Below are positions 27,515-48,383 of a DNA stretch of 64,000 nucleotides, piece after piece. Source of the DNA: an uncultured Acidobacteriota bacterium (GTDB lineage: Bacteria; Acidobacteriota; UBA6911); NCBI GenBank assembly GCA_963827655.1, contig CAWHCF010000042.1:1-64000 (forward strand). Reading direction: 5' to 3'. Under the pieces are notes generated by a model. That model had not been told where the DNA came from and made no database searches. It saw nothing but the letters and a program-made list of their open reading frames with translations. Position numbers and translations under genes: made by a program. Each line of letters opens with the position of its first letter. Position 1 is the first letter of the stretch.

Positions 27515-30500
27515 ATGGATGCCGAAATCCGAACGTTTTCAAAAGGCACTCTATTGAAATTGGCCGCGGCAGTAACCGCCCTGGTCGTCCTCGCGTCCGG
27601 TTCGCCGTTGTTGGCGCAATCGACTACGGGGAGCCTGGCCGGCGTCGTGCGGGATGTCAGCGGTTCCGTCGTCCCGGACGCCACTGTGACGGTTCGAAAC
27701 ATTGCGACCGGTTTCACACAAACCATGCCGACGGAAGCAGGCGGGGCATTTCTATTCCCGGTCTTGCCGGTTGGAGACTATGAGCTGCGCGTGGAAAAGC
27801 CGGGCTTCCAGTCCTATGTTCAGGCCGGTATTCGATTAAGCGTGGATCGCGCCGCCAGCCAGAACGTGACTTTGCAGGTCGGTCAGGTGACAGAACAGGT
27901 CACAGTGCAGGCCGAGGCCGAGCTGGTAACTACGCGCACGGCAACTGCCGGCCAGCTGGTCGACGAGAAGCGGATCGTGGAACTGCCGCTGAACGGCCGA
28001 AGACCGGAACGGCTGATCTACCTGGCGGCGGGAACCGTGGACCTGGGACGCAACTCCTGCCAGATCTGCGGCCACGGCGGAGTCTATCCCGGCGAGGAGA
28101 CAGCCGGAGTGAACGGAGCGGGGATTTACCAGGTCAACTTTCAGCTCGATGCGACCAGTCACAACGACACCTATATCAATGTCAGCCTCCCCTTCCCCAA
28201 TCCCGATTCGGTCCAGGAGTTCAACCTTCAATCCAGCAATTTTACGGCCGAATACGGCAATGCCGGCGGCGGGATCGTCAACATCGTGACCAAATCCGGC
28301 ACCAACGATATTCATGGCAGCGCGTTCTATTTCCTCCGAAACGGAGCGCTGAACGCCCGCCAGTTCTTCGCGCCGGAGCAGGATGCGCTTAAGCGCAACC
28401 AGTACGGCGGCAGCGCCGGAGGGCCGATCGTAAAAGACAAGCTGTTCTATTTCGGGACTTATCAAGGCACGCAGCTGCGCAACACTCCGGCAGGACGCAT
28501 CTCGTTCGTTCCCACGGCAGCCGAGCGGAACGGAGACTTCTCGTCAACTCCAACACAATTGATTGATCCTGTTAGCAGGCAGCCCCTTCCCAATAATCAG
28601 ATCCCCGCCAGCCGGATCAACCCGGTTTCGAAATTCTTTCTCAACCGGATCCCGCTGCCCAATGGTCCAGGCAGGCAGCTGACCTTCCCCGGAACTCCTA
28701 TTGTCCAGGACGAGAATCAGTTCATGATCAAGTCCGACTACACGACCGGCAAGCATCAGCTCAGCGGGCGCTACTACTTCACCGACTTCGACGCGCCCCC
28801 GTTCGTGGGACCGGACAACATCCTGGCTGCGAACATCGGCCGGTAATGCCGTCCGGGTACAGAACGTCTCGATCAATCACACCCTGGCGCACTCGCCCAC
28901 GCTCTTGATCAACAGCACTTTCGGCATGAACCGGCAACGAGGCGGCTCGCTCTCGAGCGCCGATTTTGGCTTTGCCGACGCAGGTGCCAAAGTCCTCGGC
29001 CCGGAGAGCGTCGAGGAACTCAATTCGCCGCCCGAGCTGATCGTGTCCGTCACGGATGGATTCAGCATCAGCACCAACCACCTGGGGGACTTTGATCGCG
29101 GTGATTTCACCGTGCGCGAGGTCGTGACCAAAATTTCGGGCCGCCACGAGCTTCGCTTTGGCGGCGAGGCGGTGAATGTCCGCAACCATATCATCAATAC
29201 CTTCCAGATGGCCGGCAACTTCACCTTCAACGGCCAGTTGTCCGGAAACGGACTGGCGGACTTCATGTTTGGCCGGTCTTCGCAATTCCGCCAGGGGGGC
29301 GGCGAATTCAAGGACCTGCTTGGGACACGATGGGGATTCTTCGTCCAGGACAACTGGCAGGTCAGCTCCAGGCTCACGCTCAATCTTGGCTTACGCTGGG
29401 ATCCCTACCTGCCTTATTTTGATCGAGAGGGCCGGGTCGTCTGTTTCCAGCCCGCCACGACTCAACGATCCGTCCGTTATCCGAATGCGCCGCTGGGTTT
29501 CTTGTACGGCGGCGAAGATAGTGATCCGGGCTGTCCCCAGGGGGGATCGGAAAGCAACTGGTGGAATCTCGGTCCGAGATTCGGCCTGGCCTACCGGCTG
29601 ACCCAGGACGGCAAGACCAGCCTCAGATTCGGCGGCGGCATTTACTACACGCCGATTCAGACGAGCAACATGAACCCCTATACCAACATCGCTCCCTTCG
29701 CCGGAACCTTCACGCTGACGGATGTCTCCTTCGATGACCCGTACGGAAGCGGAAGCCAGGCTATGGCGAATCCTTTTCCCGACAATTTTGGGCCGGATGT
29801 GCCGGGTCCCGATTTTGTGTTCGCGCCCATCAACGACATCCGGGCGTACTTTACCAAGGACTACCGGATTCCGCAGCTCGCCACCTGGAGCCTGCGGATC
29901 GAGCGCCAGATCGGCAAGGACTGGGTCGCCAGCGTCGCCTACCTCGGCAACAAGGGCACCTATCTCCAGCTGGGCACCCAGGAGAATCCGGCCATCTTCG
30001 GACCGGGCGCGACGGTCGGCAATACTCAGGCACGGCGCGTGTATCCGAATTTCGGACCCGTAGCCCGGACCGACGCAGCTGCCAACTCCAGTTTCCACGC
30101 GTTCCAGTGGAACCTGGAGAAGCGCCTCAGTTACGGCCTATCTGTCCTGGCCAATTATACGTGGTCGAAGACGATGGATAACGCTCGATGGCTCGGATCC
30201 TTACAACAGGCGGCGTGGATGGGGCCTGTCAGGGTTTGACATTCCACACAATTTTAAATTTTCGAATATCTTCGACATACCCCGAATGAATCTGAACGGA
30301 GTCGCCAGCGCATTCCTGAACGGCTGGCAGGTGAATTCCATCTTCACCTGGCAGAGCGGTTTCCCGTTCGGCGTCGGCAGCGGCAGGGACAACTCCTTCA
30401 GCGGAGTGAACGGGGATCGAGCGGATTACCTGGGTGGCGGCTCGGCCCAGCTCAGCTCAGACCGCCCCCGCGGCGAGCAGGTCTTGCAATGGTTCGACAC

Positions 30501-30780
30501 TTCCAAATTCACGGTCAACGCTTTAGGGACGTTCGGGAACAGTGGAAGGAACATTCTGCGTGGCCCCAAGTATATGACAACGGACTTTGGGCTGCTGAAG
30601 AGCACGCTCGTGAAGGAAGGATTGAGCGTGCAGTTCCGGGCCGAGTTCTTCAACCTTTTCAACAACGTCAATTTCCGCTTGCCGAACAGCAACATATCTT
30701 CCGCCCAGGTGGGCCGGATCACCGCGGTGGTGGACGATAACCAACGCATCATACAATTCGGCCTGAAAATCCTGTTCTGA
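27515..30780 (+). CDS. TonB-dependent receptor (Oar-like); 2 frameshifts
   Basis: ORFs 27515-28846, 28905-30239 and 30286-30780 join into one receptor ending QFGLKILF. Confidence 0.87.
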
Positions 30781-33772: not shown

Positions 33773-35190
33773 ATGCCAGGTAACAATCTTTCTTCTTCGT
33801 TGGGATGGTTCGAAAGGCTCGGGCTGGTGCTCGTCTGCCTGACCAGCCTGGAGGGACTTGTGTCAGGACAGGTGAAAGGAACGGCCACCTATCGCGAGCG
33901 CATGGCGATGCCGGCCAACGCGGTTTTCGAAGCTACTCTGGAAGATGTCTCAAAGGCGGATGCCAAGGCCGAAGTAATTGGACAGGCGCGCATCGAACAG
34001 CCCGGCAATCCGCCGATTCGGTTCGAAATCACGTACGACCCTTCACGTATTAGTTTCGAGCCACCGTTACGCCGTCAGGGCTCGGATCCTGGTTGGCGGC
34101 AAGCCGTTCTTCGCCACCGATCAGCATTACGCGGTGCTCACCGGTGGGAAGGGTAACGAAGTGGAGTTGCTGTTGCGCCGCGTAGGCTCCGCGGGAGGTT
34201 CGGGGTCGGGTGCTGGAGCTTTGGGGACCTTGCCTGCGACCTTCGCCGGCGATCTGCCCTGTGCCGATTGCCAGGGCATTCGACATCAGCTGGAGCTGTT
34301 TTCCGACCAGGCTTTCTTTCTGCGGATGACTTACCTGGGCAAGGGCGACAAGGCCGTCTTCGATGATATCGGCAGTTGGATCATTGCGAGCGATTCGCGC
34401 ACGCTGGTGCTCCACGGGGGCCGGGAGGCGCCGCTGAAGTTTGCCATCAAGGATGCCGGTACGCTTCGCAAGCTCGACCTCGAGGGGCGCGAGATTCCTT
34501 CGTCGCTGAATCACGATTTGAAAAGGACCCGGGACCTGCCACCACTGGAGCCGCGGCTGGCAATGCGCGGGATGTACAAATACTTCGCCGATAGCGGACG
34601 GTTTACCGAGTGTCTGACTCGCAAGAACCTGCCCGTGGCTATGGAGCAGGACAACGCCGCGCTGGAATCCGCCTACTCCAAGGCGCGGCGTCAGCCCGGC
34701 GAAGAGTTGCTGGTGAACCTGGAAGGGCGCGTGGCGCTTCGGCCCAAGATGGAAGGCCAGGGGCAGCAGCTCACTCTCGTGGTCGAGCGGTTCATTGGAG
34801 TCTGGCCCGGAGAAACTTGCGGGGCGCGATTTGCCACGGAGCCGCTGGAAAACACCTACTGGAAGCTGACTCGCCTGGGCGACACGTCAGTGACTGTGGC
34901 TCCGCAGCAGCGGGAACCGCATTTCATCCTCAATGCCCGAGACGCGGCGGGTCGGTGGATCGGGCGGCTGTAACCGGCTGATGGGCGGTTACGAGCTGAA
35001 TGGCGACGCGCTGACCTTCGGCCAGATGGCCGCTACGAGGATGGCCTGTCCGCAAGGGATGGACACCGAGAAGGCATTCCTGGACGCGCTGGGACAGGTC
35101 AAGAAATGGAAGATCGCAGGACAGCACCTCGAGTTATTTGACGCCGCCGGCAAGCTGGTGGCCCGTCTTGAAGCGCGTCACATGAAGTAA
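33773..35190 (+). CDS. YbaY-NlpE-META (HslJ) domain envelope protein; 2 frameshifts
   Basis: GTATYRERMA.P...LEDVS.AD (YbaY), GDLPCADCQGI (NlpE), G.GGCN...TRMAC (META). Confidence 0.82.
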
Positions 35191-35331
35191 CCAGATTACG
35201 GTAACAACCGAACCGACAACACGAATCTCGCCCGGCTTTGGCCACCAGTTCGGGGTTCTCGCCGTAAATCAGGTGCACGGCTCCATGCCGGGCCCCGTAG
35301 TACTAACCTGCGTCTTGACTGTCCGAGGGAC

Positions 35332-35345
35332 TACCATATATGGTA
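35332..35345. promoter_or_regulatory. Palindromic operator/promoter of the RHH-PIN module
   Basis: Perfect palindrome TACCATATATGGTA downstream of TTGACT (35315-35320), just before the antitoxin ATG. Confidence 0.55.
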
Positions 35346-35350
35346 ACCAC

Positions 35351-35591
35351 ATGAGACTCCTTCTAAAAACAACTCTCTATCTGCCCGAAGCCGACTATAG
35401 AAGGCTCAAGCTTCTGGCCCGTGCCAAGAAACGGTCGACGGCGGAGTTGCTGCGCGAGGCGATCGCCGAGTATGCAAACCGGCACGCCCCGCCGAGACTC
35501 CCGCGCAGCCTCGGCGCCGGCCGAAGCGGACGCGGGGACCTCAGCGAACGCGCCGAACAACTCCTGCACGGAATGGGGCGGCAGCCGGTGA
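35351..35591 (+). CDS. CopG/RHH antitoxin (VapB-like); reads in frame into the toxin in this sequence
   Basis: KTTLYLPE...LK..A....STAELLREAI and G.SGRGDLSERAE.LL. Confidence 0.8.
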
Positions 35592-36001
35592 TTGTCGCCG
35601 ACACCGGAGCGATTCTTGCCCTCATCGACGCAGACGACCATCACCACCACGCGTTGAGAGCGCTCTTCGAGGAGCAACCCGAGACTTGGATCCTGCCGTG
35701 GGCGGTGCTTCCAGAGGTCGATTATCTCCTCGCGACCCAGCTGGGACCGAAGGCAGAGCGACTCTTTGTTGCGGACCTGGCCGCTGGAACCTACAGGATC
35801 GAGTGGGGACACGACAGAGACTTCGAGCGGGCCCACGAGATCTCGACGCGCTATCGTGCTTTGAAGTTGGGGCTGGTCGACGCGAGCGTCATCGCAGTTG
35901 CGGAACGCCTCGGCGCCGGCGCTATTGCGACCCTCGACCTGCGGCACTTCGGTTCGGTTGCCATCAAGGGTCAGCCGAAACTCCTTCCCAGGGACCTTTA
36001 A
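35588..36001 (+). CDS. vapC: PIN-domain toxin (VapC-like)
   Basis: IVADTG.L.AL.D..D.HH, LPEVDY, LGLVDAS..A.AER, TLDLRHF. Confidence 0.88.
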   Translation: MIVADTGAILALIDADDHHHHALRALFEEQPETWILPWAVLPEVDYLLATQLGPKAERLFVADLAAGTYRIEWGHDRDFERAHEISTRYRALKLGLVDASVIAVAERLGAGAIATLDLRHFGSVAIKGQPKLLPRDL

Positions 36002-41745: not shown

Positions 41746-43237
41746 ATGGGCCTAATACCGGGCTACGAGAGCGACATCTTCATCAGCTACGCTCACAACG
41801 ACAATCTCCCTGTCCTCGATCTCAGGTGGGTAGACTGGTTTCATGAAAACCTCGAGAACCTGCTGATCGACAAACTCGGAGAAAGGCCCGTCATATGGCG
41901 CGACAGGAGGATCGATCAAACCGACCTCATTGAGGGGCTTCTCGATTCACGCGTCAATTCCTCCGCCTTGATGCTGGCCATCGTTTCGCCGAGCTACCTC
42001 AAATCAAAGTGGTGCGGGTGGGAGCGCGAGAAGTTTGTTGAAAATGCGGAAAGGCGCGGCGGGCTGCGGGTGGCCAACAAGAGTCGCATCGTCAAAGTGG
42101 TCAAGACTTACATTGAGAGCGCCAGCCTTCCCGGAGAGCTTCAAGAGACGCTCGGCGGCGAATTCCTGCGCCACGACCAAGCCGCCGGGAAATACATCCA
42201 GCTTGATTGGCAATCCCCAGAGTACCGGCAAGAGCTGGAAGCACTCGCAGATAGCGTAAAGAGCCTGATTGAAGCCTTCAGGGATCACACGGTGGCAGCC
42301 GTCCCGCTTACAAGAGAGAAGACCGTCTACCTCGCGGAGACCGATTCCGAGTTGGAGACTGAGCGCAACGACATCAAACGCGAGTTTGAACAGAACGGTT
42401 ACCACATATTCCCGAGCGTTGATCTCCCTCTCAGAGTCCACTGCCACCGCCATTGAAGAGAAGGTGCGCGACTACCTCAAGTCCGCCCAGGTCTCCGTGC
42501 ACCTGCTCGGGGCGAACTACGGCTTTGTGCCGAATAAGGGAGCGGGCCGTTCTATCGTCCGCATACAGTACGAGCTCGCGCAGCAGCACGACTCTGGCCC
42601 GGCCTTCAAACAGGTCCTATGGATTCCGAAGGGGCTGGAGGAGAGCCAGGAAAGCGAGCCTGAGCAAAGAGAGTTCATCAGCCAACTGCTGGCCAGTTCA
42701 TCCGCCCTGCGTCGCGCCGAAGTGCTGCGCGGCGACATCGAGGAATTGAAGACTTACGTGCACAACTTGTTCAGGCCGACGCCCAAATCTGTGGTTAACC
42801 TCAAAGGTAATGGCAGCACGGCCAGCGTCTATTTGATCTGCGATAAGAATGATTACGAAGAAACGGGCGCGATCGAAGAGTACCTGACCGAGCAGCACTG
42901 CGAAGTCTTGCCGACACTGCTCGAAGGCGAGGCGGAACAGGTCACACAGTATCACCGCGACAGCCTGCTCGAATGCGACGCCTTTCTCGTCTACTACGGC
43001 CGTGCCAGTTACCCCTGGGCGCTGATGAAAAAACAGGAATTCCTCAAGCTGCCGGGCCTGGGGCGGTCGAAGCCTGTCGTCGCCAAAGCCTTTTACATCA
43101 GCGGCGAGGAGAATCCGCACAAACAGCGCTTCGCCAGCAGCGAGGCTATCGTGATCAAAAATTACGACGTATTCTCACCCGAATCGCTGACTCCGTTCCT
43201 CGAGCAAATCCGCCAAGTTAAGGGACTAACGGCATGA
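41746..43237 (+). CDS. TIR-domain protein with two further TIR/DUF4062-like domains; frameshift at ~42440
   Basis: DIFISYAHND, IWRD, SPSYLKSKWCGWE (catalytic Glu position); later VYLAE...SVHLLG..YG and VYLIC...DAFLVYYG...W segments. Confidence 0.82.
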
Positions 43238-46200
43238 TCGCCGAGAGCATTGAGAAACTGTCGAACGTCCACTCGTCCGAGAACCCTTTCCCCGGACTGC
43301 GTCCGTTCGAGCTTCACGAGAGCCATCTATTTTTCGGGCGCGAGGGGCAGAGCGAAAAGCTGCTGGCTAAACTCGAGGCCACGCGCTTCCTGGCAGTCGT
43401 CGGCACGTCGGGGAGCGGCAAATCGTCGCTCGTGCGCGCGGGGCTCGTGCCCGCGTTGTTGGGCGGGATGATGGTCAGCGCCGGATCTAACTGGCGCGTC
43501 GCCCTGCTGCGCCCGAGCAATGATCCGATCGGCAATCTGGCGCGGGCGCTTGAGCTCGCCCGAGGTCTTCGGCTCGGACATTTCGGAGAATGCGGAGAGC
43601 CAGGCACGGGTCGCTGAAGCGACGCTGCGGCGCGGCAATCTCGGGCTGGTCGAGGCCGTGCGGCTGGCATTGCAGACCGCGGACGAGAATCTGCTGGTGG
43701 TCGTCGATCAGTTCGAGGAATTGTTCAGGTTCGCGCGCGAGGCCGAGAGTACGCGCTACGAAAACGACGCGGCGGCTTTCGTTAAACTGCTGCTCGAACC
43801 CTCGCGCCAATACCAGTTGGAGCAGGAAGAACTGCGCCGGAAATTACAGTCCATCGAAGGCTTACTTCGGCACCAGAAGCTGAGTCACGAAGAAGCTCGT
43901 CGAGAGGAAGCTTCAGTCCGGGAAGAAGCCCGCAAGCGTGACGCTGAGAATTTACGTCGTGCTGACGATGCGGTCGGATTTTCTGGGCGATTGCGCGAAG
44001 TTCTGGGATTTGCCCGAAGCCGTCAACGAGAGCCAGTACCTGATCCCGCGCCTGACCCGCCATCAACTGCGCGAGGCTATCGCCGGCCCGGTCGCCGTCG
44101 GCGGCGGCCAGATCGCGCCCCGCTTAGTCAATCAATTGCTCAATGATATAGGCGATAACCAGGATCAGTTACCCGTGCTGCAACACGCGCTGATGCGGAC
44201 GTGGGGCGAATGCAAGCAACGGAAGCACGACCACGTAGCCGCACCCGGTGAAATTGATGTGTGCTGTTACGAAGCAATCGGCGGGATGAAGGAGGGGCTC
44301 TCCCGCCACGCCGGCGAAGCTTACAGCGAACTCGACGCGGCGTCATCAGAAGATCGCCGAAAGGATGTTCAAAGCTTTGACCGAGAGGGGTGAGGACAAC
44401 CGCGAAATTCGTCGCCCGGCGACACTTGGCGCGCTCGCCGCCATCGCGGATGCCGGCGAGGACGAGGTCAAAACAGTTATCGAAAAGTTTCGCCAACCGG
44501 GCCGGTCGTTCCTGATGCCGCCCGCCGGGACGCCGCTGCATTCTGACACCTTGATTGACATCTCGCACGAAAGCCTGATCCGCGTGTGGAAAATATTGCA
44601 GCAGTGGGTTAATGAAGAGGCCGAATCGGCGACCATCTACCGCCGGTTGGCTGAAACCGCGGCGCTGCACGGCAAAGGCGAAGCCGAACTGTTGGGCAAG
44701 CTCGATCTGAAGCCGGTGTTGAAATGGCGGAAGAAGAACGAGCCGAACCCGCATTGGGCCGCGCGATACGAATCCGGCCTGCGCTACAAATCGGACCTGC
44801 CGGCGGCGCTGGCCTTTCTCGAAGCGAGCAAAAAGAACCGCGCGGACGAGATTGCCGAGCGCCGGCGGAGCAGGAGGGAGAAGGCGGAGCAAGGCCAGCG
44901 CCAGTTGGCGCAGGCGCAGGCCCTGGCCGAAGCACAGTCTCAGGCGGCGGACGCCGAACGGCAAAAGGCAGAAGAGCAGACTAAAGCGGCAAGCCGATTA
45001 CGGCGCTTCCTGGCGGCATTGGTCGTTGCGGCTTTGTTGGCGCTCGTGGCTGCGGGCCTCGCTCTCTCGGCGTACCGCCGCGCCAATGCAGAAAAAGCCA
45101 ACGCGAACAGACAAAAGGAGATTGCCGAAAACAGAAGAGAGGCCGAGCAGCCAAAGGGATGCACTTGATCAAAAGACCATAGCCGAGGAGAAAGACAAAA
45201 GCCGAAGACGAGAGAGGCTGAAAGCACGCGACGCGCGGCAACAAACTGAGGCAGCGAACAACGCAACTAGAGAAACGGAACGGCAAAAGCAACTGGCTGA
45301 TAGCACAGCCTACATCGCAAATATGAATCTTTCTCGGTCTGAGTTCGAAAGAGGCAATCATCAAAGGGGGTTTGAGTTACTTGACGCATATCTGCCTGCA
45401 ACCAACGCAGCGCAAGATCAGAGTGGTTTGCGGAGCTTCTATTGGTATTACCTCTGGCGACAAAACAATAGGGATTACACGCTCACCGGGCATGGGGACT
45501 TCTGTCTTGTCAGTGGCGTTCGCGCCGGACGGGCGGACGCTGGCCAGTGCGAGTGGGGACAAGTCGGTGAAGCTGTGGGACGTGCAGAGCCGCAAGGAAG
45601 TGGCCACGCTCACCGGGCATGGGGCTGTTGTCATGTCAGTGGCGTTCGCGCCGGACGGGCGGACGCTGGCCAGTGCGCAGTGGGGACAAGTCGGTGAAGC
45701 TGTGGGACGTGCAGAGCCGCAAGGAAGTGGCCACGCTCACCGGGCATGGGAGCTTCTGTCAGGTCAGTGGCGTTCGCGCCGGACGGGCGGACGCTGGCCA
45801 GTGCGAGTGAGGACAAGTCGGTGAAGCTGTGGGACGTGCAGAGCCGCAAGGAAGCTGGCCACGCTCACCGGGCACGGGGCTGCTGTCAGGTCAGTGGCGT
45901 TCGCGCCGGACGGGCGGACGCTGGCCAGTGCGAGTTAGGACAAGTCGGTGAAGCTGTGGGACGTGCAGAGCCGCAAGGAAGTGGCCACGCTCACCGGGCA
46001 TGGGGCTTATGTCTATGTCAGTGGCGTTCGCGCCGGACGGGCGGACGCTGGCCAGTGCGAGTGCGGACAAGTCGGTGAAGCTGTGGGACGTGCAGAGCCG
46101 CAAGGAAGTGGCCACGCTCACCGGGCATGGGAATGCTGTCTGGTCAGTGGCGTTCGCGCCGGACGGGCGGACGCTGGCCAGTGCGAGTGGGGACAAGTCG

Positions 46201-47274
46201 GTGAAGCTGTGGGACGTGCAGAGCCGCAAGGAAGCTGGCCACGCTCACCGGGCATGCGGACTCATGTCTGGTCAGTGGCGTTCGCGCCGGACGGGCGGAC
46301 GCTGGCCAGTGCGAGTGGGGACAAGTCGGTGAAGCTGTGGGACGTGCAGAGCCGCAAGGAAGCTGGCCACGCTCACCGGGCATGGGGATGATGTCTGGTC
46401 AGTGGCGTTCGCGCCGGACGGGCGGACGCTGGCCAGTGCGAGTGCGGACAAGTCGGTGAAGCTGTGGGACGTGCAGAGCCGCAAGGAAGCTGGCCACGCT
46501 CACCGGGCATGGGGATGCTGTCTGGTCAGTGGCGTTCGCGCCGGACGGGCGGACGCTGGCCAGTGCGAGTGAGGACAAGTCGGTGAAGCTGTGGGACGTG
46601 CAGAGCCGCAAGGAAGCTGGCCACGCTCACCGGGCACGGGGATGATGTCATGGTCAGTGGCGTTCGCGCCGGACGGGCGGACGCTGGCCAGTGCGAGTGA
46701 TGACAAGTCGGTGAAGCTGTGGGACGTGCAGAGCCGCAAGGAAGTGGCCACGCTCACCGGGCACGGGGATTATGTCAGGTCAGTGGCGTTCGCGCCGGAC
46801 GGGCGGACGCTGGCCAGTGCGAGTGCTGACAAGTCGGTGAAGCTGTGGGACGTGCAGAGCCGCAAGGAAGCTGGCCACGCTCACCGGGCATGGGGATTCT
46901 GTCTGGTCAGTGGCGTTCGCGCCGGACGGGCGGACGCTGGCCAGTGCGAGTGAGGACAAGTCGGTGAAGCTGTGGGACGTGCAGAGCCGCAAGGAAGTGG
47001 CCACGCTCACCGGGCACGGGAGTGCTGTCAGGTCAGTGGCGTTCGCGCCGGACGGGCGGACGCTGGCCAGTGCGAGTGATGACAAGTCGGTGAAGCTGTG
47101 GGACGTGCAGAGCCGCAAGGAAGTGGCCACGCTCACCGGGCATGGGGCTCTGTCTTGTCAGTGGCGTTCGCGCCGGACGGGCGGACGCTGGCCAGTGCGA
47201 GTGCTGACAAGTCGGTGAAGCTGTGGGATGGAGCTACAGACAAAGACATTGAGGACTATAAACCGAGGAAATGA
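43234..47274 (+). CDS. nSTAND1 NTPase-TM-14xWD40 NLR-like receptor; many frameshifts in this sequence
   Basis: NPFPGLRPF...[54 protein letters not shown]; hydrophobic helix at ~45005-45075; WD40 array; ends [17 protein letters not shown]. Confidence 0.85.
45479..47229 (+). repeat. 14 tandem ~126-bp near-identical WD40-coding repeats
   Basis: Units start at about 45479, 45606, 45733, 45861, 45987, 46114, 46241, 46369, 46496, 46623, 46750, 46877, 47003 and 47129; consensus [42 protein letters not shown]. Confidence 0.97.
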
Positions 47275-47439
47275 GGCAAAAAGAGTCAGGAGTGGGCGCG
47301 GCCTTGGCAATGATCTACTGCGCTTTCATCCCACGTCCTTACCAAAAACTCCATGTGTCTCCCAGGATTCCTTTCAGCTCGCGGGCGCAGTTCTGGGATA
47401 TGTGGCTGGTGGTGCGGGACGCCGGGGCAATGCACAAGC

Positions 47440-47810
47440 GATGGCCGCGAGTGTTCACGAGGGCATTTCGTGAACAGTGTAGTGGGCCGACTACCCCACC
47501 AGGAAATCCATGTGATTCTGGATAACCTGAGCACCTGCAAACCCAAGGAAAACAGCTGGCTCTCTCGGCACACAAGAATGTTCATCTCCACTACACACCG
47601 ATCCACGCTTCCTGGCTCCGCCAGGTGGAGATTTGATTTAGCATCTTGAGTGGCCGCGCCCTTAGAGGAGCAAGCTTTATTCCACCTCGCCAAGTCCGGG
47701 AACCCATCGATCGATATGTCGAAGTCCACAACCAAGAGGCTACACCTTTTGAATGGCGTAAGAGATTGTTCATCAGAACCCACTCGCATAAATACTCTAG
47801 CGTTACTCAG
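47440..47810 (+). pseudogene. IS630-family transposase C-terminal remnant
   Basis: EIHVILDNLST.K...WL..H and LSGRALRGASF...I.RY...HN....PFEW, across frameshifts. Confidence 0.7.
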
Positions 47811-47833
47811 GTACTGGCCGTGTCCTCGAGAGA

Positions 47834-47984
47834 ATGCTCTTCGGTGTTACGGTGTTGCGCCCTCCGACACCCTCGCGTTTGCCAGTACGGCACTGGTTCT
47901 CGTTGCGGCAGCCATTGTCGCGAGTCTCATCCAAGCGTGGCCGCCGCCCGCGTCGATCGGGTCACTGCACTGCGCCTGGCGTGA
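47834..47984 (+). pseudogene. C-terminal remnant of a MacB/FtsX-type ABC permease
   Basis: YGVAPSDTLAF...ASLI..W and AARVD.VTALR, split over frames. Confidence 0.6.
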
Positions 47985-48383
47985 GGGCCCTCAAGGCTCG
48001 CTGGCCTGTTGCCTGACCCGAGTAAGGCTCAGCGCCAAAACCTGTTTCGCGGTTTCAGTAGGCACGCCAGGCTTCCTCAATGGCCTCGATAGATCGCAAG
48101 TAGCGCCGCAGGGTTTACTAATCGCAGTTCACTTGGACGTAGTAGGCGGCTTACCGGACAAGTGGCGATTCACGTGGTGGTCCCTTCTGACCCGCCCCTG
48201 CGGTTTGGACGATTTCCAGAACTTGAGTTTAAGTAGCTCGATAGATGCACGCTGAATAGGGTCGCGGAAGGTGGAAAGGCGAATGAATATGCCGGACGCA
48301 ATACTCCGGGTATCCGGGCGGCTCGCGCGGAACAGTTGAAACGCGGCGCCGGAGGTGCTACAAGTGGGTTTGTGAAAAACGGC

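Follow-up and report, generated by a model that had tools for sequence, protein, structure and literature searches.

A near-identical 14-unit WD40 array behind an nSTAND1 NTPase in a probable soil acidobacterium, with frame breaks at its variable codons

The window that we analysed, the whole stretch of 64,000 nucleotides, carried on its forward strand a gene with a TIR_2 domain and directly downstream of it the pieces of a receptor gene, in which an nSTAND1 NTPase and a hydrophobic helix are followed by a tandem array of WD40 repeats. The features were as follows:

41746..43237, forward strand: TIR_2 gene, its middle part DUF4062-like (TIR-like), interrupted by a +1 near 42438; about 497 aa when read through
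43234..45477, forward strand: first two thirds of the receptor, comprising the nSTAND1 NTPase (P-loop GTSGSGKS) and a helical linker
45010..45066, forward strand: hydrophobic transmembrane-like helix between NTPase and repeats, preceded by an Arg/Lys-rich stretch
45478..47229, forward strand: WD40 array of 14 head-to-tail units, nominally 126 nt (42 aa)
47230..47274, forward strand: C-terminal tail of 14 protein letters ending in TGA, read in the WD40 frame of unit 14
47353..47649, forward strand: possible decayed IS630-family transposase fragment, given as context and outside the system

The upstream gene matched TIR_2 in Pfam (E 8.6e-10) and, weakly and under the cut-off, DUF4062 (E 0.0072); no NTPase domain was matched by Pfam in this protein. 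Aligned with the intact homologue of the relative L020, it runs in frame 2 as far as 42429 and continues in frame 3 at 42434, with a single-base gap at 42438. Its end at 43237 overlaps the receptor start at 43234. The reading frame of the receptor is broken as well, by +1 insertions near 43549, 43945 and 44340 and a further break between about 45130 and 45233, which makes at least five breaks in the two genes ahead of the array. The nSTAND1 domain (PF20703), directly 5' of the array on the same strand, is split over four ORF pieces covering positions 1-88, 92-148, 152-277 and 282-370 of 379, three of which scored above the 27.1-bit cut-off (103.9, 112 and 47.5 bits) and the fourth 24.8 bits. 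The roughly 3.4 kb of unique coding sequence held these five frameshifts and zero nonsense codons, and about 25 long intact ORFs were found in the remainder of the window. Over its 19 residues the helix at 45010-45066 averaged 2.8 on the Kyte-Doolittle scale, which measures hydropathy only and does not predict topology; a comparable hydrophobic segment (1.87-3.35) lay at the matching place in all nine relatives checked, and 64 of the 120 best-matching WD40-array proteins showed a transmembrane-like helix about 100 residues ahead of the first blade. Downstream of the array, the match of 47353..47649 to NF033545 was far too weak to name the fragment (E 0.0083, 15.6 bits vs a cut-off of 100), and 47286-48255 gave no Pfam match. 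Contigs of the runs X1 and X4 differed by indels at 47486, 47493 and 47569 within this transposase-like fragment.

The 14-unit array described in the first-pass annotation is real: Tandem Repeats Finder reported a single array at 45478-47228 (13.8 copies, 95% matches, score 3037, period 127), and an anchor search delimited its units by 14 anchors. PF00400 matched an in-frame piece at 46910-47140 (Pfam, E 1.1e-23), the best match to a solved structure was 2YMU (E 3.1e-178, 14 matched stretches), and the 14 blades probably form two 7-bladed propellers. Among the 94 constant columns only one varied, a GAC/GAT difference in the last unit, and the main silent polymorphism was CAC in four and CAT in ten units. 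The near-identity of the units even at synonymous sites held up, the silent differences being CAT/CAC, the one GAC/GAT and, at x4, GCG/GCT.

Column counts also agreed with the four variable codons of the first pass, x1, x2 and x3 in GH-G-x1-x2-V-x3-S and x4 in S-x4-D; the codon in E-[V/L]-A is probably a fifth variable site. Third positions were nearly fixed, as had been noted: T at x1 and at x2 and G at x3 in each of the eight readable units, with nine G and four T at x4. At x1 and x2 T is the last letter of all nine codon types, which is not chance, since the product of T-ending usage is 1.2e-6 (expectation taken from 15,497 codons in the long ORFs of the window itself). By hand count at least 15 changes fell on the eight first and second positions of the four codons vs 3 on 42 third positions, and single-step differences between alleles fell at codon positions 1 and 2. 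Under the sequence rule of PMC3419727, whose pattern (V/L/I)-R1-R2-(V/L/I) was taken from the available part of that paper, x2, x3 and x4 correspond to the WD40 top-face hotspots R1-2, R1 and D-1. The codons of these predicted top-face contacts and of R1-3 (x1) carry many amino-acid-changing alleles that lie single steps apart. The earlier list of alleles covered seven of the eight readable units and none of the six broken ones, and what it gave as 'tag' is a stop codon in the frame of unit 4.

In all seven acidobacterial relatives examined for the gene pair (L020, L021, L024, L025, L026, L028 and L029) the TIR gene was kept together with an intact nSTAND1-WD40 ORF of 1237-1413 aa; TIR_2 was found in 7/7 and DUF4062 was above the cut-off in 3 of 6 tested. 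Self-identity at a lag of 42 residues had a median of 0.64 and a maximum of 0.94 in the 120 best protein matches. Five of seven stacked homologous arrays had 14 units, and those stacked in register (P0007, P0032, P0073 and P0070) varied most at matching positions. Variation between units is therefore the norm of the family, because intact homologues from other assemblies differ at matching positions.

The frame of the array itself was broken by 12 one-nucleotide insertions, one deletion and one TAG, the in-frame stop of unit 4, and the ORF list of the window contained no ORF >150 aa across it. Units were in order 127, 127, 128, 126, 127, 127, 128, 127, 127, 127, 127, 126 and 126 nt long; the 126-bp unit of the first-pass annotation, which had missed the frame breaks, is found in only 3 of these 13 full units, and the period is 127. 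The variable block measured 13 nt, not 12, in units 1, 3, 5, 7 and 10. In unit 14 it was 11 nt long, unit 2 had an additional C ahead of AGT, and units 3, 6, 7, 8, 9 and 11 carried GAAGCTGGC in place of GAAGTGGC, with an extra C. All 13 indels were located in one of three places (variable block, x4 block, E-V/L-A codon) that together make up about 21 of 126 nt (p 8e-11 vs uniform placement; p 1e-6 for the 7 non-tail indels). Insertions of one base accounted for 12/13 array indels and for 4/4 net indels relative to L020 in the unique part. In four of the five 13-nt blocks the added base turned the codon into a merge of two alleles that are intact in other units (GACT = GAT + GCT; AGCT = AGT + GCT; ATGG = ATG + TGG), vs 89/320 random insertions (0.28) under the null, a modestly significant excess (p about 0.02). 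An alternative coding of the array was rejected. A period of 127 nt permits no read-through; of the unit's frames, the second is open and the third is closed by a TGA in each unit, and reverse-strand ORFs reach at most 118 aa. The extra C in six units could also be a single real mutation spread via gene conversion.

On indirect evidence, we consider it probable that consensus errors of the metagenome assembly, and not biology, account for the roughly 20 frame breaks of the window. Where two alleles differ by one base, the consensus would carry both bases, and the merged alleles may come from neighbouring units or from co-occurring strains. Short-read contigs from soil-metagenome runs of four studies, 90-99% alike, showed frame-restoring differences at 5/5 breaks among the positions listed (43548, 45131-45233, 45498, 46015 and 47148), omitting one base at 43548 and adding five letters at 45131-45156. 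The Logan contigs of X1-X4 left the array's middle (about 45640-46700) almost without cover and are uninformative there either way. A second WD40 array of the assembly (C13:53560-55365) showed the merge pattern too, with an extra base in its x1 codon and with CGTG in place of the CTG or GTG of intact units. Repeats alone do not corrupt the assembly, because other near-identical tandem arrays were without indels (C41:92242-93630, period 285, 97% matches, 0% indels). No DNA-level paralogues of 41746-43237 or 43234-45477 were found in the assembly, and contamination from an in-genome paralogue was therefore rejected as the source of the frameshifts in the unique part. Since there is no paralogue to contaminate this consensus, a strain mixture must be assumed, which counts against the error reading. 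The 90-99% alike contigs may represent other strains with intact genes, the source copy being dead.

The first-pass annotation had also raised the concern that the array might be a collapsed or over-polished artefact. This was borne out in part: the array is real, but its consensus appears corrupted exactly at the hypervariable codons, so that the assignment of alleles to units and the distinction of between-unit from between-strain differences are untrustworthy.

A true pseudogene appears unlikely, though not far-fetched. The TIR plus nSTAND1-WD40 operon would be dead in the source strain and gathering frameshifts, with unequal recombination keeping the constant parts identical and having spread the frameshifted GAAGCTGGC unit type to six units. 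Such decay would fit at least 18 frame breaks and one TAG over 5.5 kb between intact neighbouring genes, the further nSTAND1 genes of the genome that are split too (twice on C36, and on C35), and the adjoining decayed transposase-like fragment, itself a weak match. Bacterial propellers of the WRAP type (WD40-family recently amplified propeller) are reported in the available part of PMC9218822 as commonly disrupted by frameshifts and in-frame stops, which is interpreted there as rapid gene turnover, and the prior for a real pseudogene therefore rises; likewise, WD repeats of Podospora pseudogenes are described as kept intact by concerted evolution with active loci (PMC1805685, in part). Several results nevertheless speak against decay: 13/13 array indels fall at variable sites (p about 1e-10), the inserted bases recreate existing allele pairs, there is one nonsense codon vs 18 frameshifts, the C13 array has a matching merge pattern, and near-identical short-read contigs are without the breaks. 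Natural bacterial gene decay is deletion-biased, whereas insertions outnumber deletions here by 16 to 1.

Rather improbable is the possibility that the array is real but much of its hypervariability between units stems from co-assembled strains or misplaced reads, in which case the order of units, the placing of alleles and perhaps the copy number would be wrong. The two-allele merges at 12 consensus sites and the many 90-99% alike soil-contig variants across the locus, with 271 other-letter places of which 40 were listed individually, are consistent with it, and the available parts of PMC9218822 and PMC12222747 warn of the difficulty of assembling such arrays. Set against this are the intact homologues of other assemblies, whose 14 units differ at matching positions, and the number of 14 units itself, which is usual for the family (5/7 stacked arrays and 2YMU).

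We regard it as very improbable that the insertions are real and the footprint of an error-prone, site-directed process rewriting top-face codons in vivo, for which mismatch-provoked repair of heteroduplexes during constant unit-to-unit gene conversion would be a candidate. If true, the receptor would be self-diversifying, with many copies in the population out of frame for a time. Indels that coincide with variable codons in two separate arrays of one genome would be expected from such a process and equally from a mixed-allele consensus.

The targeted diversification suggested by the first-pass annotation fared worst. BLAST with a two-unit query found the unit at the array locus only within the 8.18-Mb assembly (90% complete), the next best match being the C13 array (66-67% identical), which leaves the suggested donor pool empty as far as this assembly shows. 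Among 41 genomes (G000, the source assembly, and 40 relatives) it occurred only in G000, with chance matches of 27-71 nt elsewhere, and an exact 30-mer scan of JGI metagenome contigs led to four loci on three contigs, all unrelated WD40 genes (best match 80% over 105 nt). The array contig had no reverse transcriptase; RVT_1 matches were found only on C22 and C49, and the stronger one, on C22, belongs to a group II intron maturase (TIGR04416, 309.8 bits), near which neither a 100-nt repeat nor, within 8 kb, a template-like repeat >37 nt was found. Adenines of the constant parts (e.g. in GACAAG and GTGAAG) never vary, which excludes adenine-specific mutagenesis by a diversity-generating retroelement (DGR) across the unit, and a DGR target was rejected on these grounds together with the missing second unit copy and template repeat. 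A dedicated mutagenic mechanism on the four codons, DGR-like or new, with the indels as by-products, would fit the changing first and second and fixed third codon positions and the indels at variable codons in two arrays, but is the least credible explanation given these searches and the ascription of the codon pattern in fungi and Nostoc to selection on point mutations (PMC1805685, PMC9218822, both in part).

With the breaks read as consensus errors, the locus itself is a poor copy of an ordinary example of a known immune-receptor-like gene type. By analogy, we think it reasonably likely that the array serves as the C-terminal, ligand-sensing domain in a STAND receptor of NLR-like kind, composed of the nSTAND1 NTPase, the hydrophobic helix and 14 WD40 blades, with a putative NADase gene (TIR/DUF4062-like) directly 5'. 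The units may have been homogenised by recent amplification and/or by unequal recombination and gene conversion between 126-nt units, and diversifying selection would retain variants solely at the binding surface. A ligand bound to the top face of the propeller would permit NTP-dependent oligomerisation, as in Apaf-1, Avs and fungal HNWD, and the oligomer would activate the TIR-type effector. Roles in defence, as NADase effector and in oligomerisation are proposed here entirely by analogy, as protection from phage by ligand-triggered oligomerisation and effector activation is described for antiviral STAND (Avs/bNACHT-like) defence in the available parts of PMC13581612 and PMC10907252.

The locus adds a probably acidobacterial example from soil to the known STAND receptors with near-identical WD40 blades, and its biological weight is small. 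Near-identical WD40 arrays are, moreover, traps for metagenome consensus callers: the errors hit precisely the informative codons, and therefore allele catalogues, dN/dS values and counts of 'disrupted propellers' from metagenome-assembled genomes may be inflated. Should the helix ahead of the blades cross the membrane, the variable sensor would point to the outside, which would change the presumed targets of the receptor.

Near-identical bacterial WD40 arrays with variable hotspots, neighbouring TIR genes and common disruptions have already been described (PMC9218822, PMC5587647, as far as available), and judged by its sequence the locus belongs to this class of highly repetitive ('WRAP'/HIC) propellers. 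The reference WRAP is Npun_R6612 of Nostoc punctiforme (PDB 2YMU; available parts of PMC9218822 and PMC6805158, through which the work of Dunin-Horkawicz et al. 2014 is cited here). Shared with it are almost identical 42-residue blades, 14 of them in the unreliable assembled copy, which follow a STAND NTPase C-terminally, an adjoining TIR gene on the upstream side, nearly no synonymous differences between blades, relatives often disrupted by frameshifts or stops, and variation of the 2YMU blades at the residue aligned with x3 (R/W/N). Differences concern the host, here probably an acidobacterium and not a cyanobacterium; the NTPase, here of the Pfam nSTAND1 type and separated from the propellers by a hydrophobic helix; the upstream partner, in WRAP a second STAND ATPase with N-terminal TIR and here a TIR protein without a Pfam NTPase domain; and the variable alleles, which are far more numerous than the 10 point mutations quoted for Npun_R6612. 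The Highly-Repetitive (HR) prokaryotic WD40 proteins of Hu et al. 2017 (PMC5587647, available part) are likewise similar, with internal identity >0.7 and diversity explicitly concentrated at predicted top-face hotspots; that survey was made at protein level on UniProt entries, and the array copy studied here would be missed because it has no intact ORF.

DNA-level homogenised WD40 repeats are also known from the HNWD genes of Podospora anserina (HET-D, HET-E, HET-R), which resemble the locus in the double propeller, probable here, and in the need of long reads for accurate assembly (PMC1805685, PMC12222747, both in part). Their four hypervariable codons form two pairs, each flanking a conserved residue (7/9 in the d-a loop, 25/27 in the b-c turn), and x2, x3 and x4 correspond to codons 7, 9 and 25 (PMC1805685, available part), whereas codon 27 is a constant Lys here and x1 (R1-3) varies instead. 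The HET-D/HET-E analogy drawn in the first pass is therefore sound for positions but not for the family: HNWD proteins are single polypeptides that begin with a HET domain and carry a NACHT NTPase, and the locus, with its nSTAND1 NTPase, gave no Pfam match to NACHT or HET at E up to 0.01. RIP is not known to exist in bacteria. As the unit is absent from other loci of the genome, there is no multi-locus repeat pool either, unlike in HNWD.

In the available defence-STAND literature we found no experimentally tested member with the exact architecture of this locus. Its effector is encoded on a separate polypeptide, unlike in those systems, and its sensor may lie across the membrane. What the locus shares with defence STAND NTPases that carry WD40 sensors and TIR-like NADase effectors (PMC13581612, in part) is a tripartite logic of effector, NTPase and sensor, with a TIR/DUF4062-like effector gene in both (PMC13174449 for DUF4062; PMC8195603 for nSTAND1).

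The window carried a single WD40 array, preceded on the same strand by genes for a TIR_2 protein and an nSTAND1 NTPase:

41746-43237, strand of the array, upstream: TIR_2 protein (Pfam; DUF4062 match sub-threshold)
Upstream of the array, strand of the array: nSTAND1 NTPase in four overlapping ORF pieces, together spanning profile positions 1-370 of 379 (Pfam)
45010-45066: hydrophobic helix of 19-23 residues between NTPase and repeats (hydropathy)
45478-47228: WD40 array, 13.8 copies, 95% matches, score 3037, period 127 (Tandem Repeats Finder)

Cutting the array at a fixed 15-nt anchor gave 14 units, the number given in the first-pass annotation. The unit length of 126 bp assumed there did not hold, as the period was 127 and the 13 spacings were 127, 127, 128, 126, 127, 127, 128, 127, 127, 127, 127, 126 and 126 nt, only three of them multiples of three. 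Each unit contains four variable codons, x1 to x3 in GH-G-x1-x2-V-x3-S and x4 in S-x4-D. Segmentation by constant blocks showed that the variable block GGG-[x1 x2 GTC x3]-TCA comprised 13 nt in units 1, 3, 5, 7 and 10 and 11 nt in unit 14. An extra C preceded AGT in unit 2, units 3, 6, 7, 8, 9 and 11 had GAAGCTGGC in place of the GAAGTGGC of the other units, and the x4 codon of unit 4 was TAG. This amounted to 12 insertions, one deletion and one stop, and no ORF of more than 150 aa was found across the array.

Outside these sites the units were nearly identical. Only one of 94 constant columns varied, with CAT/CAC (10:4) as the main silent polymorphism. Among the eight units with a readable block we counted four codons for four residues at x1, five for five at x2 and three for three at x3, while x4 showed six codons among 13 units. 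Third positions were fixed as T, T and G in x1 to x3 and were G or T in x4, so that the near-identity, confined variation and fixed third positions noticed earlier were confirmed. The alleles share a common origin, their differences being confined to first and second positions, because the chance of all nine x1/x2 codon types ending in T is about 1e-6 under the codon usage of 25 long window ORFs. By our count there were about 15 changes at eight first- and second-position sites versus three at 42 silent sites; such an excess is expected where diversifying selection acts on a homogenised array. CAT and CAC each occurred with both tail types, which hints at shuffling but could be an artefact. 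The homogeneity may have arisen either by recent amplification, as the WRAP authors hold, or by concerted evolution, as proposed for HNWD genes; the window copy itself is corrupted.

The reading frame was also broken upstream. Compared with the intact proteins of the acidobacterial locus L020, the window showed one frame change in the TIR gene (~42430) and three in the NTPase (~43550, 43940 and 44340), and a global DNA alignment (78% identity) placed net single-base insertions in the window at 42438, 43549, 43945 and 44340. One more shift is required between 45130 and 45478. Some 25 long ORFs were open elsewhere in the window. Two groups of adjacent ORFs, each on one strand and with coding-like GC3, overlapped in different frames, at 28728-30236 and 30064-30777, and at 33978-34970, 34894-35187 and 35186-35998; these overlaps may be further frame breaks. 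Downstream of the array, 47286-48255 lacked a coding-like ORF, differed from soil-metagenome contigs by several indels and matched an IS630 transposase once, below threshold (E 0.0083); it may be a decayed insertion sequence.

Further repeats and nSTAND1 genes were found in the source assembly G000:

C13:53560-55365, minus strand: second WD40 array, ~14 units (TRF period 128, 82% matches, 5% indels)
C36:15667-16910, C36:28045-29339 and C35:95821-96529: nSTAND1 genes whose NTPase domain is divided between two ORFs, in one case with a TGA

Five lines of evidence argue that the frame breaks of the array and its upstream genes are probably consensus errors. All 13 array indels fell within about 21 of 126 nt, where units differ (uniform placement p ~1e-10; 1e-6 for the seven outside the tail site), and 16 of the 17 located indels were +1 insertions. 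In four of the five 13-nt blocks the affected codon merged two alleles intact elsewhere, as in GACT, AGCT and ATGG (null rate 0.28, p ~0.02), and GAAGCTGGC would be the expected product of a GTG/CTG pair. The C13 array, the only other one in the assembly with comparable internal identity, was likewise frameshift-ridden and spread over all three frames. Its extra bases lay at the same sites as in the window, namely in the x1 codon and at the homologous E-V/L codon, which read CGTG where its own in-frame units had GTG or CTG; the gene upstream of it was also fragmented. Finally, Logan contigs 90-99% alike, from four soil-metagenome runs of four studies, carried frame-restoring indels at every break among the listed differences. 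Contigs of runs X1 and X2 omitted one base at 43548, and those of X4 omitted one each at 45498 and 46015. Contigs of X2 added five letters at 45131-45156 and replaced 43 nt by 76 at 45189-45233, a net +38 that is the shift required to bring NTPase and WD40 into one frame, and two X2 contigs had an added T at 47148. Contigs across 42438 (records 2, 16 and 24) and 44340 (record 12) showed one gap each somewhere along their length.

We hold a true pseudogene to be less likely than consensus errors, but several points speak against the error reading. Other near-identical tandem arrays of the assembly are free of indels, about half of the roughly eight nSTAND1 genes of G000 (four) look split (copies on C41 and C23 are intact), and disrupted WRAP propellers are reportedly common, which has been interpreted as rapid turnover (PMC9218822). 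A single mutation spread by conversion could account for the extra C in six units. Consensus errors must moreover assume a strain mixture, because the assembly contains no paralogue of the unique parts.

The targeted diversification mechanism suggested earlier found no backing. No second copy of the unit that could act as donor was found in the 8.18-Mb, 90% complete G000 assembly, nor was the unit found in any other of the 41 genomes searched or in a JGI contig scan. Adenines of its constant part were never variable. The search for a reverse transcriptase did yield RVT_1 matches on contigs C22 and C49, the strong one being:

C22:191426-193617: group II intron reverse transcriptase/maturase ORF, 413 aa (TIGR04416, 309.8 bits)

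This ORF is bracketed by 35-nt inverted repeats (94% identical), and no template-like repeat was found within 8 kb of it.

The nearest relatives among species genomes were loci of acidobacterial MAGs, the best being L020 (86% identity over the query fragment). All seven acidobacterial loci examined encoded a TIR_2 protein (497-563 aa; DUF4062 over cut-off missing in four) followed by one intact nSTAND1-WD40 ORF (1237-1413 aa). In Bacteroidota loci L033-L048 (Cytophagales, Cyclobacteriaceae) a HEAT-repeat protein of ~1050 aa took the place of the TIR gene, with a weak C-terminal cyclic-nucleotide-binding match in L033 (E 2.2e-4, below cut-off), and in L044 a DUF4062 protein stood there instead. 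Two in-frame units as protein query gave 7717 matches at E <=1e-10 among 8000 candidates scored. The best 120, skewed to consensus-like repeats through candidate selection, were mostly STAND- or kinase-linked WD40 proteins of cyanobacteria, actinobacteria, Acidobacteriota and others, with a median lag-42 self-identity of 0.64 (maximum 0.94). Five of seven stacked arrays of relatives had 14 units, and P0007, P0032, P0073 and P0070, stacked in register, varied most at GH-x-x-x-V-x-S and S-x-D, like the window array.

The helix at 45010-45066 is transmembrane-like and preceded by an Arg/Lys-rich stretch. A comparable NTPase-WD40 helix occurred in all nine relatives checked, and 64 of the best 120 matches had one at most 250 residues before the first blade. 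Should this helix, predicted from hydropathy, cross the membrane N-in, the variable propellers would be extracytoplasmic. No description of such a helix was found in those parts of the literature that our search covered.

Alongside the observed domain order, conserved gene pair, near-identical units and variable-codon positions, we propose a mechanism by analogy. As in named WD40 families, the top faces would bind a ligand, which may license NTP-dependent oligomerisation of the nSTAND1 module as in Apaf-1 and Avs proteins (PMC7159879, PMC13581612). Oligomerisation would activate the putative NADase of TIR/DUF4062 type encoded upstream; a 2026 preprint describes DUF4062 as a TIR-like NADase (PMC13174449).

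The window array belongs to an already published class, and its consensus is unreliable. Near-identical bacterial WD40 arrays on STAND NTPases, their TIR neighbours, missing synonymous differences and frequent disruption have been reported (PMC9218822), as have hotspot-site diversity in highly repetitive prokaryotic WD40s (PMC5587647) and the difficulty of assembling such arrays (PMC12222747). The best solved structure was 2YMU (E 3.1e-178, with 14 stretches matched), the WRAP domain with 14 blades from Nostoc punctiforme Npun_R6612; its blades vary at the residue aligned with x3. We mapped the variable residues by alignment to 2YMU and by a published sequence rule, in which the (V/L/I)-R1-R2-(V/L/I) fingerprint starts strand a and D-1 precedes the tetrad Asp (PMC3419727). 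Under this rule x1 is predicted as R1-3, x2 as R1-2, x3 as R1 and x4 as D-1; R1-2, R1 and D-1 reportedly protrude at the top face and make most contacts in 29 complexes (PMC3419727). The likeness to HET-D/HET-E also held at the level of aligned positions, as x2, x3 and x4 line up with codons 7, 9 and 25 of the HNWD repeat of Podospora, located in the d-a loop and b-c turn (PMC1805685).
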